A stretch of 64,000 nt of DNA, from assembly GCA_016432485.1 (NCBI GenBank), contig CP066691.1, forward strand, positions 587,538 through 651,537, in the 5' to 3' direction. Both the position numbers and the translations under genes were made by a program. The stretch is from Candidatus Niyogibacteria bacterium. GTDB lineage: Bacteria; Patescibacteriota; Minisyncoccia; HO2-45-28. The notes beneath the pieces were generated by a model. It saw only the letters and a program-made list of their open reading frames with translations. It made no database searches and was not told the DNA's origin. Of this stretch, positions 34,812-38,583 are shown one piece after another. Within the stretch, counting starts at the first letter, position 1. Every line of letters starts with the position of its first letter.

Positions 34812-34912
34812 AAACACACCATAACAAAAAATTTAAGACCAGCAACAATTGCAATCGTCGGTTTGATTTTCTTTCCCCCAATCGAAACCGCCAATTCGTT
34901 TTTGCCCCCAAA

Positions 34913-34955
34913 ATGCCGTACAAAATAATCGCCGAGCGAAGCGAGGCGAACCGAA
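34913..34955. repeat. about 45-nt element GCCGAGCGAAGCGAGGCG...TTGCAAA(T/A)TCC adjacent to tRNA-Phe (second copy at 42541-42586 adjacent to tRNA-Ser)
   Basis: The two elements, 7.6 kb apart and both just 3' of minus-strand tRNAs, share an 18-nt motif GCCGAGCGAAGCGAGGCG (within a 20-nt match) plus a second short block. Confidence 0.6.
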
Positions 34956-34978
34956 ATCGCTTGCAAATTCCTTACTGA

Positions 34979-35051
34979 TGCCTGGGGAGGGAATCGAACC
35001 CCCGACGCCTGCCTCTTCAGGGCAGCGCTCTAACCACTGAGCTACCCAGGC
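34979..35051 (-). tRNA. tRNA-Phe(GAA)
   Basis: GCCTGGGTAGCTCAGTGGTTAGAGC..., anticodon loop CTGAAGA. Confidence 0.85.
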
Positions 35052-35724
35052 TTCTTGGTTTTTGCAGATATCTTAAACCAAAAAATTTGTCTTTTTCCAG
35101 AGCACTTTTGATTTTATAGTATTTTCTGTTTAAAAACAAGACATCTTTAGAACGATACATTACAAAGAAAAGTTTTTTAGAATCTCCCTTTGTGTATTCT
35201 AAATTCATGACCCCTTTTCCTTTGTGAAAAAAACCGCTTACACCATAAAACCTTACCAGACTGTCTTTAAGCCATTCTAAAAATGGTAAACTCGCAGAAG
35301 CAAAGGACAATCTAAATCCAAAACTATTTGGCCATCTTTTATCCCAAAATGTATAAAATGAACCGTCTCCATCAAACAATCCTCTGACAAAGTCGGCGAA
35401 GAATTTTTTGGGCACGTTAACTTTTTTAATAGATTTTGATTTTGTCTGTGTAAGACCGATTTCATTTAAAAATTTATAAAACACTATATCACCAAAAGTT
35501 ATCTGAAAATACCTTTTTTCGGAAACACCCCCGCGCCCACCTTTTCCTATTTTGTTTTTGATGTTGAGTGCTATTTTAAATTTTTCTACCAATTCTTTAT
35601 CTGCCGATTTTAAAAATATGTGTCTTTTATCACGAGACAAACACCCATCGGAGGTTATAACACCAATTGCATATGCAAAGTTTGACGACCATTCTATTTT
35701 TACTTTTTGCTGTGGCAGACCCAC
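35017..35724 (-). CDS. LAGLIDADG-family homing endonuclease (two-motif, monomeric type), free-standing
   Basis: Motifs AIGVITSDGCLS and VRGLFDGDGSF. The 3' end overlaps the 5' half of tRNA-Phe by about 35 nt. Confidence 0.75.
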   Translation of the reverse strand: MGLPQQKVKIEWSSNFAYAIGVITSDGCLSRDKRHIFLKSADKELVEKFKIALNIKNKIGKGGRGGVSEKRYFQITFGDIVFYKFLNEIGLTQTKSKSIKKVNVPKKFFADFVRGLFDGDGSFYTFWDKRWPNSFGFRLSFASASLPFLEWLKDSLVRFYGVSGFFHKGKGVMNLEYTKGDSKKLFFVMYRSKDVLFLNRKYYKIKSALEKDKFFGLRYLQKPRSLGSSVVRALP

Positions 35725-35807
35725 TAAATCAATTTTACTATATTTTTAAGTTTACTACCACCGAGCTAAAATAAAAAGAAAACCCCGCTGATAGCGAGGT
35801 CTGTTTT

Positions 35808-36070: not shown

Positions 36071-37396
36071 TTGAACAGAGCCGGAGGAATCAGCGTGCCC
36101 CGCAAAAAACATCAGCCCAAATTGTCCGCTTTAGACCCCGATAGTTTAATGACGAGTTATGATTTTCTGCCCGAATTATCAGAGGGCGCCGTAAAACCGC
36201 CCGTTTTTCTCACTTCAACATTTGCTTTCAAAGGCGCGGGAGAACTAGCTGCTTTAATTCAAACCGCCCATGACAATCGTGGCGGAAAATCCAACGAAGC
36301 ATTGCCGTTAATTTACAGCCGTATTAATCATCCGAACGCCGAGATATTTGAAAAACGTTTTTCTTTATGGAACGGCTCGGAAGAGGCGGCGGTTTTTGCC
36401 AGCGGTATGGCCGCTATCGCTACCACCTCTTTTGCTTTTTTGCGTCCGGGAGATATTTTACTGCACAGTTCTCCTTTATACGGCGGCACAGAGGATTTTT
36501 TTGCGCGGGAGTTAAGAACTTTTGGCATTAAGACTGCGTCCTTTTCGGCGGAAAGCGATTATTCTGAAATAAAAAAAATCGCAAAAAGAGCTTGTCGTCG
36601 CGGGCCCTTGAGAATGATTTTCGTTGAAGCCGCGGCTAATCCCACCAATGTTCTGGCAGACATTGAGGCCTGCGCGGAAATCGCCGAAGAATTTTCTTCC
36701 GGAAAGCGAAAAGCTATCACCGTCGTTGATAACACCTTTCTCGGTCCGCTTTGGCTCAATCCCTTCAAACACGGCGCCGACTTGGCCTTATACTCGGCTA
36801 CTAAATATATTGGCGGGCACAGCGATCTTCTGGCTGGTGTTGTTGAAGGAAAAGCCAAAATGATTTCGCGGTTAAAGAGCGCGCGTACGCGTTTCGGCAA
36901 CATTGCCGGAGCGTTTACTTGCTGGCTTTTGACCAGAAGCTTGGAAACATTGAAATTACGAATGACCGCGCAGGTGAAAAACGCAAGGCGCGTTGCCGAT
37001 TTCTTGCGCGATGACCGGAGAGTGGAAAAAGTTTACTATCCGGAATTTTTTGAAGAAGACAGTAATCAAAACAGGCTCTATGAAAAACAGTGTTCGGCGC
37101 CAGGCGCAGTGGTTTCTTTTGATATCAAGGGCGGTCGAAAAACGGCCTTTAGATTTCTTGACGCCCTCAAGTTCTTTAAGTTGGCCGTAAGTCTGGGCAG
37201 TACCGAGCCGCTGGCCGAACATCCGGCCACGACAACACACTATGGTATTCCTCGCGAAAAAAGAATCCGCCTGGGAATTACTGATAAAATGATCCGTTTG
37301 TCCATTGGTCTCGGTTCTCCGTATGATTATATTTTTGATTTAAAACAAGCGTTAGACGAAGCGGTTCGCGATCGCCGCGCGCGACAGCTTCGTTGA
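36071..37396 (+). CDS. Cys/Met-metabolism PLP-dependent enzyme (cystathionine gamma-synthase / O-acetylhomoserine sulfhydrylase family)
   Basis: YSATKYIGGHSD PLP-lysine motif. Confidence 0.8.
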   Translation: MNRAGGISVPRKKHQPKLSALDPDSLMTSYDFLPELSEGAVKPPVFLTSTFAFKGAGELAALIQTAHDNRGGKSNEALPLIYSRINHPNAEIFEKRFSLWNGSEEAAVFASGMAAIATTSFAFLRPGDILLHSSPLYGGTEDFFARELRTFGIKTASFSAESDYSEIKKIAKRACRRGPLRMIFVEAAANPTNVLADIEACAEIAEEFSSGKRKAITVVDNTFLGPLWLNPFKHGADLALYSATKYIGGHSDLLAGVVEGKAKMISRLKSARTRFGNIAGAFTCWLLTRSLETLKLRMTAQVKNARRVADFLRDDRRVEKVYYPEFFEEDSNQNRLYEKQCSAPGAVVSFDIKGGRKTAFRFLDALKFFKLAVSLGSTEPLAEHPATTTHYGIPREKRIRLGITDKMIRLSIGLGSPYDYIFDLKQALDEAVRDRRARQLR

Positions 37397-37767: not shown

Positions 37768-37785
37768 ATTTCGCTTCGCTTCATG

Positions 37786-37868
37786 TGCCGAGAGTGGGAT
37801 TCGGACCCACATGCCCTTTCGGGCACATCATTTTAAGTGATGCGCGTATACCATTCCGCCACCTCGGC
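37786..37868 (-). tRNA. tRNA-Leu(TAA)
   Basis: GCCGAGGTGGCGGAATGGTA..., anticodon loop CTTAAAA, long variable arm. Confidence 0.8.
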
Positions 37869-38387
37869 TTATTTCTTAAGTCGTCTTCGTCCTCTGTACG
37901 ACGATTTAAGACTATGACAATTAGGACACAATATTTCTAGATTCTCTATTCTGTTATCGTGCCGGTTGCCATTAATATGGTGTAGTTCTAAGGGCAGATA
38001 TCCGTCTATGGTTTTTCTTGCCCATTTACACCTTTCGCAGTGTTTAGGTTTAAGGTTTGCTGAAAAAAGACGGTTTTTTAATTTATAACTTTGAAAATAA
38101 CTTTCTGCAATAAGGATTTTTTCAAGAGGGATTATGGGTTTTCCAATACCTCGCAACCCCGCATTCCACCCTCGTCCTTTGAAATGGCTGACGTCAAGAT
38201 TCAGTTCTCTTATATACTTTTTTAGTTGGTCGTAATTTCCGCCGGCTTCACGAAGCTCCAGTTTGGTCAAAACTTGTCTGTAGCTGAATGAATTTTTGAC
38301 AGACCTCTTTAGCTGATCTGTCGTCCATTTTCTTTTCCTACTCATATATATAATTGATATTTTATCACGAAATGGAAAACGCATCAA
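37869..38387 (-). CDS. HNH endonuclease
   Basis: C-terminal ELHHINGNRHDNRIENLEILCPNCH HNH/His-Me finger motif with paired Cys pairs. The stop codon is directly adjacent to the tRNA-Leu(TAA) 5' end. Start may be at 38345. Confidence 0.75.
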   Translation of the reverse strand: MMRFPFRDKISIIYMSRKRKWTTDQLKRSVKNSFSYRQVLTKLELREAGGNYDQLKKYIRELNLDVSHFKGRGWNAGLRGIGKPIIPLEKILIAESYFQSYKLKNRLFSANLKPKHCERCKWARKTIDGYLPLELHHINGNRHDNRIENLEILCPNCHSLKSSYRGRRRLKK

Positions 38388-38583
38388 TACTTAAGTACTT
38401 ACGCGTCTACCATTATAGTTACATATGAAATTTAAAAAGAACTTGGAGTATATTTACAACAAAGCTCGAACTCATTTTATCAAAAATTTTCAGAAAAAAC
38501 AACGCCCCGTCGCCCACCAATTCGTCGGTCAAAAATCGGAAAGTCTAATTGTGGAGGCCCGGGCGGGAATCGTCCAGCCCTTT

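Follow-up and report, generated by a model that had tools for sequence, protein, structure and literature searches.

A LAGLIDADG endonuclease gene joined to an intact tRNA-Phe gene in a Niyogibacteria genome, and its probable mobility as a cassette

Homing endonucleases are thought to owe their survival in essential genes to the self-splicing introns or inteins that conceal them. A locus in the genome of a Candidatus Niyogibacteria bacterium (assembly GCA_016432485.1), a tiny groundwater member of the candidate phyla radiation (CPR), raises the question of how such a gene may be kept beside an essential gene that has no intron. In the window, by which we mean the whole stretch of 64,000 nucleotides (nt) that was analyzed (contig CP066691.1, positions 587,538 to 651,537), an open reading frame (ORF) encoding a LAGLIDADG endonuclease runs directly into an uninterrupted tRNA-Phe gene. 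We find that this homing endonuclease gene (HEG) is one of many selfish genes, each attached to one particular tRNA gene, that make up a large and seemingly undescribed family. The reading that we favor, with a probability of roughly 0.7, is that of a free-standing homing endonuclease mobile together with its tRNA, as a cassette of promoter, nuclease and tRNA.

The nuclease gene and its junction with tRNA-Phe

The initial annotation, made from the sequence letters, described a two-motif LAGLIDADG ORF that is co-oriented with tRNA-Phe and extends about 35 nt into it, with a contiguous and canonical tRNA that contains no intron. This description is borne out by the coordinates of the ORF and the tRNA, by ARAGORN and by the Rfam match over the full tRNA model. 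The parts of the two genes, with the evidence for each, are as follows.

35017-35724 (-): HEG ORF of 235 amino acids with a GTG start, a single-chain LAGLIDADG protein (ORF listing, Pfam, AlphaFold2, Foldseek)
35641-35676 (-): LAGLIDADG motif 1, AYAIGVITSDGC, residues 17-28, with catalytic D26 (Pfam and alignment)
35359-35394 (-): LAGLIDADG motif 2, DFVRGLFDGDGS, residues 111-122, with catalytic D120 (Pfam and alignment)
35053-35724 (-): conserved protein body, residues 1-224, whose C-terminal YLQKPR ends 1-2 nt short of tRNA +1 (alignment)
35017-35052 (-): read-through tail SLGSSVVRALP and TGA stop, from tRNA positions 1-35 (alignment, pLDDT <50)
34979-35051 (-): tRNA-Phe(GAA), contiguous and without an encoded CCA, the 3' end of the proposed cassette (ARAGORN; Rfam tRNA, 70 bits, model positions 1-71)
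34875-34978 (-): trailer specific to the window, from the end of the flank homology to the tRNA 3' end, with a terminator-like hairpin inside it at 34929-34944

By every family feature open to computational testing, the window protein belongs to the LAGLIDADG enzymes. Its motifs are supported by a profile match to LAGLIDADG_3 in two stretches (Pfam, E=1.1e-10), which is the only Pfam match; no Hint, extein, helix-turn-helix (HTH) or other extra domain was found in the ORF. Both catalytic residues, D26 and D120, are invariant in an alignment of 30 homologues; in a set of 25 distant representatives, D26 never varies and conservation of D120 is 90% or more. The AlphaFold2 model built from the homologue alignment (pLDDT 88.7, pTM 0.87) has the pseudo-dimeric alpha-beta-beta-alpha-beta-beta-alpha fold. 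Foldseek returned 127 matches in the PDB at E<=1e-3, and the best 50 of the 127 are all LAGLIDADG-fold proteins, headed by the archaeal intron enzyme I-Tsp061I and including intein endonucleases, I-SceI and I-DmoI. A sequence search of the PDB gave marginal matches only, to I-CreI variants (E about 1e-3), and NCBIfam has no model for a tRNA-linked LAGLIDADG family. From sequence and model, the ORF encodes an intact, free-standing, single-chain LAGLIDADG homing endonuclease that is probably active.

The window ORF lacks its own stop codon and borrows one from inside the tRNA, its final 35 nt (35017-35051) being tRNA positions 1-35. Homologous proteins share a conserved end, ...YLQK(P/Q)R, which is followed by tRNA-Phe translated in differing frames (tails such as VAQW, VAQR, GSSVVRALP and GSSVVELSPEERRVAGSIPAPSI). 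In the Phe-linked loci the stop inside the tRNA falls at +10 (14 loci), at +21/22 (8 loci) or at +35 or +77-89, and all three frames are used. Residues 225-235 of the window protein are not conserved, are predicted to be disordered and form the sole disordered part of the AlphaFold2 model (pLDDT <50). The 35-nt overlap is mere read-through.

Between 33000 and 38000, Rfam detects no group I intron or other non-tRNA RNA family, even at E<=1. The same search is sensitive to introns of this kind, as it finds group I introns (Intron_gpI, 59-71 bits) splitting tRNA-Phe at the anticodon in three compared loci, which are numbered here with an L: L094 (4958-5256), L011 (3699-3934) and L026 (3678-3919). 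Two of these, L011 and L026, also carry the LAGLIDADG gene, and L094 is from a Niyogibacteria relative; ARAGORN misses all three genes. Because ARAGORN and Rfam show a whole tRNA with no intron in this interval, the window gene is free-standing.

One tRNA for each clade, and tRNA fossils upstream

Related loci were collected in two sets. A one-genome-per-species scan with context look-ups gave 85 loci, all from CPR metagenome-assembled genomes. A metagenome scan seeded with a 5-sequence alignment of distant representatives gave 80 more, of which 75 were long enough; an alignment of 25 distant representatives was too diverse as a seed for this locus scan. In 159 of 159 informative related loci, from CPR genomes and metagenomes, the homologue stands immediately upstream of a tRNA in the same orientation. 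None of 80 viral loci with distant LAGLIDADG_3 relatives has an abutting tRNA, and phage and viral collections, considered as a vehicle, hold only such generic relatives (<=37% identity) without tRNA linkage. Since the junction is found in every informative locus and in 0/80 viral loci, the adjacency of ORF and tRNA is far beyond chance. A profile search of 1.8 billion representatives found 197 clusters at E<=1e-30, and the tails of many of them are translated tRNA 5' ends. ORFs are intact in 84 of the 85 loci of the first set, L032 alone being truncated.

The identity of the tRNA follows the protein. The 34 loci whose protein has 51% identity or more to the window ORF all pair it with a co-oriented tRNA-Phe(GAA): 29 of these tRNAs are called by ARAGORN, 2 are split by a group I intron, 2 are interrupted by a contig end that falls inside the tRNA, and the remaining contig ends too early. 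Proteins 44-51% identical are paired with tRNA-Leu(GAG) in 51/51 loci. In the metagenome set a co-oriented tRNA stands at the ORF end in 75/75 loci, the partners being Leu-TAG (31), Leu-CAA (19), Leu-GAG (16), Leu-TAA (5), Leu-CAG (1) and Phe-GAA (3). Protein clades map one-to-one onto the anticodons Phe-GAA and Leu-GAG, TAG, CAA and TAA, and for all 159 proteins with a possible neighbor of the same label, the closest protein that is not identical accompanies a tRNA with that same anticodon. All partner tRNAs carry A35. The Leu-CAA clade (L148, L161-L181) comes from GC-rich soil contigs that are probably not CPR, and thus the family seems to reach beyond CPR; its proteins have an HTH-like N-terminal extension and its loci no visible tRNA fossil.

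Such fossils, remnants of the 5' part of the cognate tRNA gene, lie upstream of many of the ORFs, break off at a fixed position and coincide with promoter-like elements. In the window, the following features stand upstream of the ORF.

35732-35737 (-): -10-like hexamer TAAAAT, 7 nt 5' of the GTG start (read from the sequence)
35755-35768 (-): tRNA-Phe D-arm fossil TAGCTCGGTGGTAG, tRNA positions 8-21, with the derived change A14G (motif statistics; also in L264)
35756-35761 (-): GTGGTA, a -35-like box inside the fossil, 18 nt upstream of the -10 (read from the sequence)
35780-35802 (-): terminator hairpin of an upstream small ORF, part of the host flank and the upstream limit of the cassette (also at the empty site of L100)

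The layout of -10 and start codon is the same in L264, L010 and L011, and its 7-nt spacing implies a leaderless or near-leaderless mRNA. A start codon 6-7 nt after the -10, with the same implication, is found in many loci of the family. The Phe-clade fossil, (TAG)CTC(A/G)GTGGTAG at positions 8-21, occurs in 9/31 Phe loci versus 0/51 Leu-GAG loci; several of these fossils share A14G and have therefore been inherited together with the element. In the Leu-GAG clade, ATTGGTAkACGCTATTACCTTGAGG is present in 38 of 60 distinct loci, 40-110 nt 5' of a conserved Trp codon. It corresponds to tRNA-Leu from the D-loop to the anticodon loop, including the anticodon GAG, and usually runs straight into TATAAT. 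The Leu-TAG clade has ATTGGCAAACGCTAT....yTTAG followed by TATAAT in 15/25 loci, and here the fossil anticodon is TAG. No fossil with the non-cognate anticodon was found in either clade (TAG in 0 of 60 GAG-clade loci, GAG in 0 of 25 TAG-clade loci). The D-loop sequence TTGG(T/C)A falls 17-18 nt 5' of the -10, a good sigma-70 layout. One locus of the Leu-TAG clade (L110) retains a complete tRNA-Leu 5' half upstream (positions 1-36), and tRNA-Leu fossils are stacked upstream of the Leu-TAG-clade genes in L104 and L120/L130, which suggests repeated invasions of one locus.

A second promoter lies in the 3' end of the ORF, 10-24 nt 5' of the tRNA, in 26/61 Leu-GAG loci. In the Phe loci, promoters for tRNA-Phe within the ORF 3' end are at chance level (5/28, scattered). 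This lack of a separate tRNA promoter in the Phe clade suggests that the nuclease mRNA would be the 5' leader of the tRNA precursor, transcribed with tRNA-Phe. As judged from these sequence features, the tRNA-Phe of the window is most likely made from the nuclease's own transcript.

Presence, absence and transfer of the unit

The loci of close relatives were reached via a search with Hsp20, which is 80-86% identical in these Niyogibacteria. The order ValRS-PrsW-Hsp20 is kept in these genomes and three states are found downstream of it. In L100/L101 there is a promoter, a naked and intron-less tRNA-Phe on the Hsp20 strand, and then the terminator and small ORF known from the window. In L094-L099 there is an unrelated 231-amino-acid HTH-containing ORF, a 29-nt spacer and a tRNA-Phe with a group I intron; L263 is probably in this state, as its 208-amino-acid ORF call is the same as that of L099. 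The LAGLIDADG cassette itself is present, on the opposite strand, in the window, in its strain variants L086-L093 and in L264-266, which are of the same lineage as the source of P0002, an 85% homologue of the window protein. Groundwater samples of the SRR121134xx series contain identical contigs. The locus is thus polymorphic among related Niyogibacteria, as revealed by the comparison of presence and absence that the initial annotation had named beforehand.

The limits of the shared unit point to a cassette that includes the tRNA. The window and L264 are 85% identical from 34979 to the terminator (35800), with identical tRNAs, versus 70-78% in the flanks, and the homology begins at exactly 34979, the last base of the tRNA. 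A clearer case of transfer is the pair L020 (Wildermuthbacteria) and L021, which have in common a unit of exactly 797 nt with 97.0% identity; it opens about 5 nt upstream of the ATG and closes with the final base of tRNA-Phe. Their tRNA-Phe genes are 73/73 identical, other tRNAs are 84-93% and flanking protein genes 65-72% identical, and the spacers cannot be aligned. Similarly, the HEGs of L001 and L006 are 83% identical versus 65-68% for their flanks. The ratio of nonsynonymous to synonymous substitution rates (dN/dS) lies at 0.09-0.18 in the diverged pairs and reaches 0.42 in the very recent one. By polymorphism and by transfer, the window gene behaves as a homing endonuclease gene. The free-standing endonuclease on a tRNA gene that was originally annotated therefore stands in a refined form: its overlap is read-through, the moving unit apparently includes the whole tRNA and the fossil promoter, and the gene is one of a large tRNA-specific family.

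A cassette carrying only the 5' half of the tRNA, and thereby creating a hybrid tRNA, was also considered. This possibility is weakened by the functional tRNAs, whose stems fully co-vary and are host-diverse, and by the transferred units, which end at the tRNA 3' end.

Two further ORF types are linked to tRNAs. The first is in the window, where an HNH endonuclease ORF of 172 amino acids (37869-38387 (-); Pfam HNH_3, 1.9e-6, and HNH, 7.6e-6) has a TAA stop that abuts tRNA-Leu(TAA) +1 at 37868. Upstream of this ORF, at 38382-38414, AATGGTAGACGCGTAAGTACTTAAGTATTGATG is a tRNA-Leu(TAA) fossil running from the D-loop through the anticodon arm, all of this in the region 37785-38414 (-). The distance from tRNA-Cys to tRNA-Leu(TAA) is 52 nt in L100 versus 715 nt in the window. 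As this element is of an unrelated family and has the same layout, the design is convergent. The second type is a family of ORFs of 223-248 amino acids with an N-terminal HTH (HTH_23, 2e-5), an internal LYWAEGYK and a conserved C-terminus (L094 4274-4969, L097 3334-4029, L059, L015, L052, L036, L041 and L026). These ORFs end a few nt from a co-oriented tRNA (Phe, Gly-GCC, Val-GAC, Ile-TAT or Arg-GCG) and show no relation to the window ORF by BLASTP; they may represent another type of endonuclease.

The flanks of the cassette differ from those of the relatives in other respects. The stretch 34812-34874 (+) is the decayed 5' end of a small membrane ORF that follows Hsp20 in L094, with homology ending at 34874. 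On the other side of the cassette, a pyridoxal phosphate (PLP) enzyme of Cys/Met metabolism (36071-37396 (+)) is missing from the syntenic region of the relatives. Its closest relative, on a 2-kb contig, is 65% identical, and the rest are from outside CPR (57% identity to Calditrichaeota, Elusimicrobia and Acidobacteria). Given these relatives and its absence from the syntenic genomes, it was probably acquired horizontally.

How the cassette may move, and which systems it resembles

In the mechanism that we propose, the cassette would consist of a promoter formed on the fossil D-loop, a nearly leaderless ORF that borrows its stop from the tRNA, and the complete tRNA. The enzyme would cut the cognate tRNA gene where it lacks a HEG, at or close to the position at which the fossils break off (the anticodon loop in the Leu clades, the D-loop in the Phe clade). 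Repair of the break would then copy in the nuclease with a replacement tRNA, and the 5' part of the displaced resident tRNA would be left upstream and recruited as a promoter. The tRNA fossils and the match between clade and anticodon are the reasons for which we infer cleavage of HEG-less tRNA genes. RNase P processing of the co-transcript would remove the only stop of a Phe-clade mRNA and could hold the nuclease at a low level.

A further step is to regard the element as a cleave-and-replace drive on essential RNA genes, in which a resident tRNA gene is cut and a cassette with the nuclease and a substitute tRNA is copied in, an intron-free form of homing. Under such a drive, the old D-loop would serve as the -35 of a hybrid promoter whose -10 is given by the first bases of the cassette, and retargeting of the protein to new anticodons would have produced one clade per tRNA species. 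This reconstruction from comparative sequence is tentative, and we consider it somewhat less probable than an even chance.

Several observations weigh against the mobile cassette. The linked tRNA is intact and canonical, so that an insertion leaves any target inside the tRNA unsplit, and the escape of the carrier from cleavage therefore has no explanation under this mechanism. D-loop variants are commoner in HEG-linked tRNA-Phe, a difference that is not significant and is based on about 10 HEG-less alleles, with several loci mislabelled by the classifier and no correction for relatedness. The cassette in the window and in L264-266 is on the opposite strand to the tRNA-Phe of the relatives, an arrangement that simple homologous homing cannot produce. 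The left junction of the unit shared by L020 and L021 is without flanking homology. The -35-like GTGGTA of the window fits the consensus at 3 of 6 positions, and a generic promoter scan makes no call there. Finally, the HEGs of L050/L068 and L072/L085 have diverged in step with their flanks, which indicates long vertical persistence and would also suit a domesticated gene. Taken with the cases of transfer, this co-divergence indicates that the element is maintained by vertical descent under selection and also jumps.

Between HEG-linked and HEG-less tRNA-Leu(GAG), the anticodon loop does not differ. In the HEG-less genes for this tRNA in L001 (3354-3436) and L006 (2791-2878), position 33 of the loop (TCGAGGG) is C, not the near-universal U.

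Domestication is the alternative that survives best, although we consider it unlikely. The protein would then be a sequence-specific DNA binder, as WhiA is; it would regulate the tRNA transcription unit, for example via the promoter fossil, and be kept for the benefit of the host. Its strong purifying selection (the low dN/dS of the diverged pairs), the pairs that co-diverge with their flanks and the presence of WhiA (3hyi) among the structural neighbors found by Foldseek are all in keeping with this, as is the conservation of a fossil that overlaps the promoter and whose anticodon tracks the partner tRNA, as an operator might. However, the catalytic Asp of each motif is invariant, in contrast to WhiA, where these residues are gone, and Pfam finds no HTH or added domain. 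A gene with a host function is also difficult to reconcile with a sporadic distribution and an empty site in a close relative, with a 797-nt unit that is 97% identical between genomes whose flanks are 65-72% identical, and with an unrelated HNH nuclease in the same layout. Autoregulation would in any case be compatible with homing, as in I-TevI, which combines the two.

Less probable again is a stranded relic, that is, a single ancient HEG insertion beside a tRNA that was inherited vertically and is now inactive, with an accidental overlap. Some vertical inheritance does occur, and in the window copy the start is GTG and the -35 weak. Yet nearly all ORFs are intact (84/85, with L032 the only truncated one), dN/dS is well under 1, and a unit has been exchanged horizontally in recent times (L020/L021). 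The five or six clades, each with its own tRNA species, would need repeated retargeting, and the stacked fossils in L104 and L120/L130 point to repeated invasions.

That an intron- or intein-encoded enzyme was misread as free-standing, owing to a split tRNA or to an ORF that is part of a larger protein, is suggested by the introns and inteins in which LAGLIDADG enzymes usually reside and by the group I introns that split tRNA-Phe in relatives and in two loci with the HEG, but is refuted by the ARAGORN, Pfam and Rfam results and most improbable, given no Intron_gpI or structured RNA around the ORF at E<=1, a contiguous tRNA with 70 bits over the full model, an ORF start of its own right after a promoter and terminator, and no Hint or extein domain.

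If the mobile cassette is correct, it would be a third solution to persistence in an essential gene, available to RNA genes: a nuclease that directly precedes the gene on its 5' side, forms the leader of its transcript and moves with an intact copy of it. Cleave-and-replace, if true, would let a nuclease home to an RNA gene with no intron, much as engineered cleave-and-rescue drives work, and HNH nucleases would have reached the same design independently. The arrangement bears on why rearrangements, introns and extra ORFs concentrate at CPR tRNA loci, on horizontal exchange of tRNA genes between divergent CPR lineages, and on the old idea that ties tRNA introns and split tRNA genes to mobile elements attacking tRNA genes. 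The family is also a natural LAGLIDADG series, with clades that differ by the anticodon they accompany, and thus a ready set for studies of meganuclease retargeting.

We found no description of tRNA-adjacent free-standing endonucleases in the searchable literature, including full-text searches. Insertions in CPR 16S and 23S rRNA genes encode LAGLIDADG_1, LAGLIDADG_2 and LAGLIDADG_3 proteins, and the arrangement is not mentioned there (PMC11270868). Nor is it mentioned for bacterial tRNA group I introns, which encode HNH enzymes in tRNA-Asn of Patescibacteria, LAGLIDADG enzymes in cyanobacterial tRNA-Arg(CCU) and PD-(D/E)XK enzymes in tRNA-fMet (PMC13011429). The rRNA-intron enzymes (I-Tsp061I, I-DmoI and those of CPR) share with the window protein the fold, the catalytic motifs, the LAGLIDADG_3 domain, CPR hosts and a structural-RNA gene as target, and I-Tsp061I is its best structural match (TM 0.67/0.76, Foldseek). 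They differ in that the intron or insertion which encodes them interrupts the rRNA gene and is taken out of the RNA, whereas the window nuclease lies 5' of an uninterrupted RNA gene. The endonucleases of tRNA introns resemble the family in their tRNA gene target, in a break or insertion at the anticodon loop and in grouping by anticodon. In their case self-splicing keeps the tRNA functional, whereas here a whole tRNA is supplied downstream of the nuclease.

Two other systems are similar in part. WhiA is a domesticated LAGLIDADG transcription factor with a C-terminal HTH that has lost its catalytic acidic residues; it shares the bacterial two-domain scaffold with the window protein, in which the two Asp residues remain and an HTH is lacking. 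Genomic islands and prophages that carry a tyrosine integrase duplicate the 3' part of a tRNA. Like them, the element uses a tRNA gene as a landing site, with a partial tRNA duplication that restores a functional copy; unlike them, it has no integrase and its fossil is the 5' part of the tRNA.

The closest systems in behavior are the phage endonucleases of intronless homing and the replacement ORFs of fungal mitochondria. The tRNA-linked element departs from both in its nuclease type, its host, its RNA-gene target, its fossil promoter and its pairing of one clade with one anticodon. SegB, in the T4 tRNA gene cluster, and SegF are GIY-YIG phage endonucleases that spread by intronless homing in co-infection. 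As in the window, the nuclease gene is intergenic and beside tRNA genes, and neighboring markers are co-converted, which may be compared with the 73/73 tRNA-Phe identity of L020 and L021. The window gene differs in its LAGLIDADG domain and its place in a CPR chromosome, and a conserved tight fusion to one tRNA, a fossil promoter made from a tRNA and a clade per anticodon are not known for SegB and SegF. In the hybrid atp6 gene of Allomyces, an endonuclease ORF of fungal mitochondria brings a replacement end for the gene it enters. Here too a free-standing endonuclease gene would enter an essential gene with a substitute part, the original part being left as a fossil. In Allomyces a protein gene has its 3' end replaced by an in-frame fusion, whereas in the tRNA-linked family the gene specifies an RNA, its 5' part is displaced, and the fossil has become a promoter.

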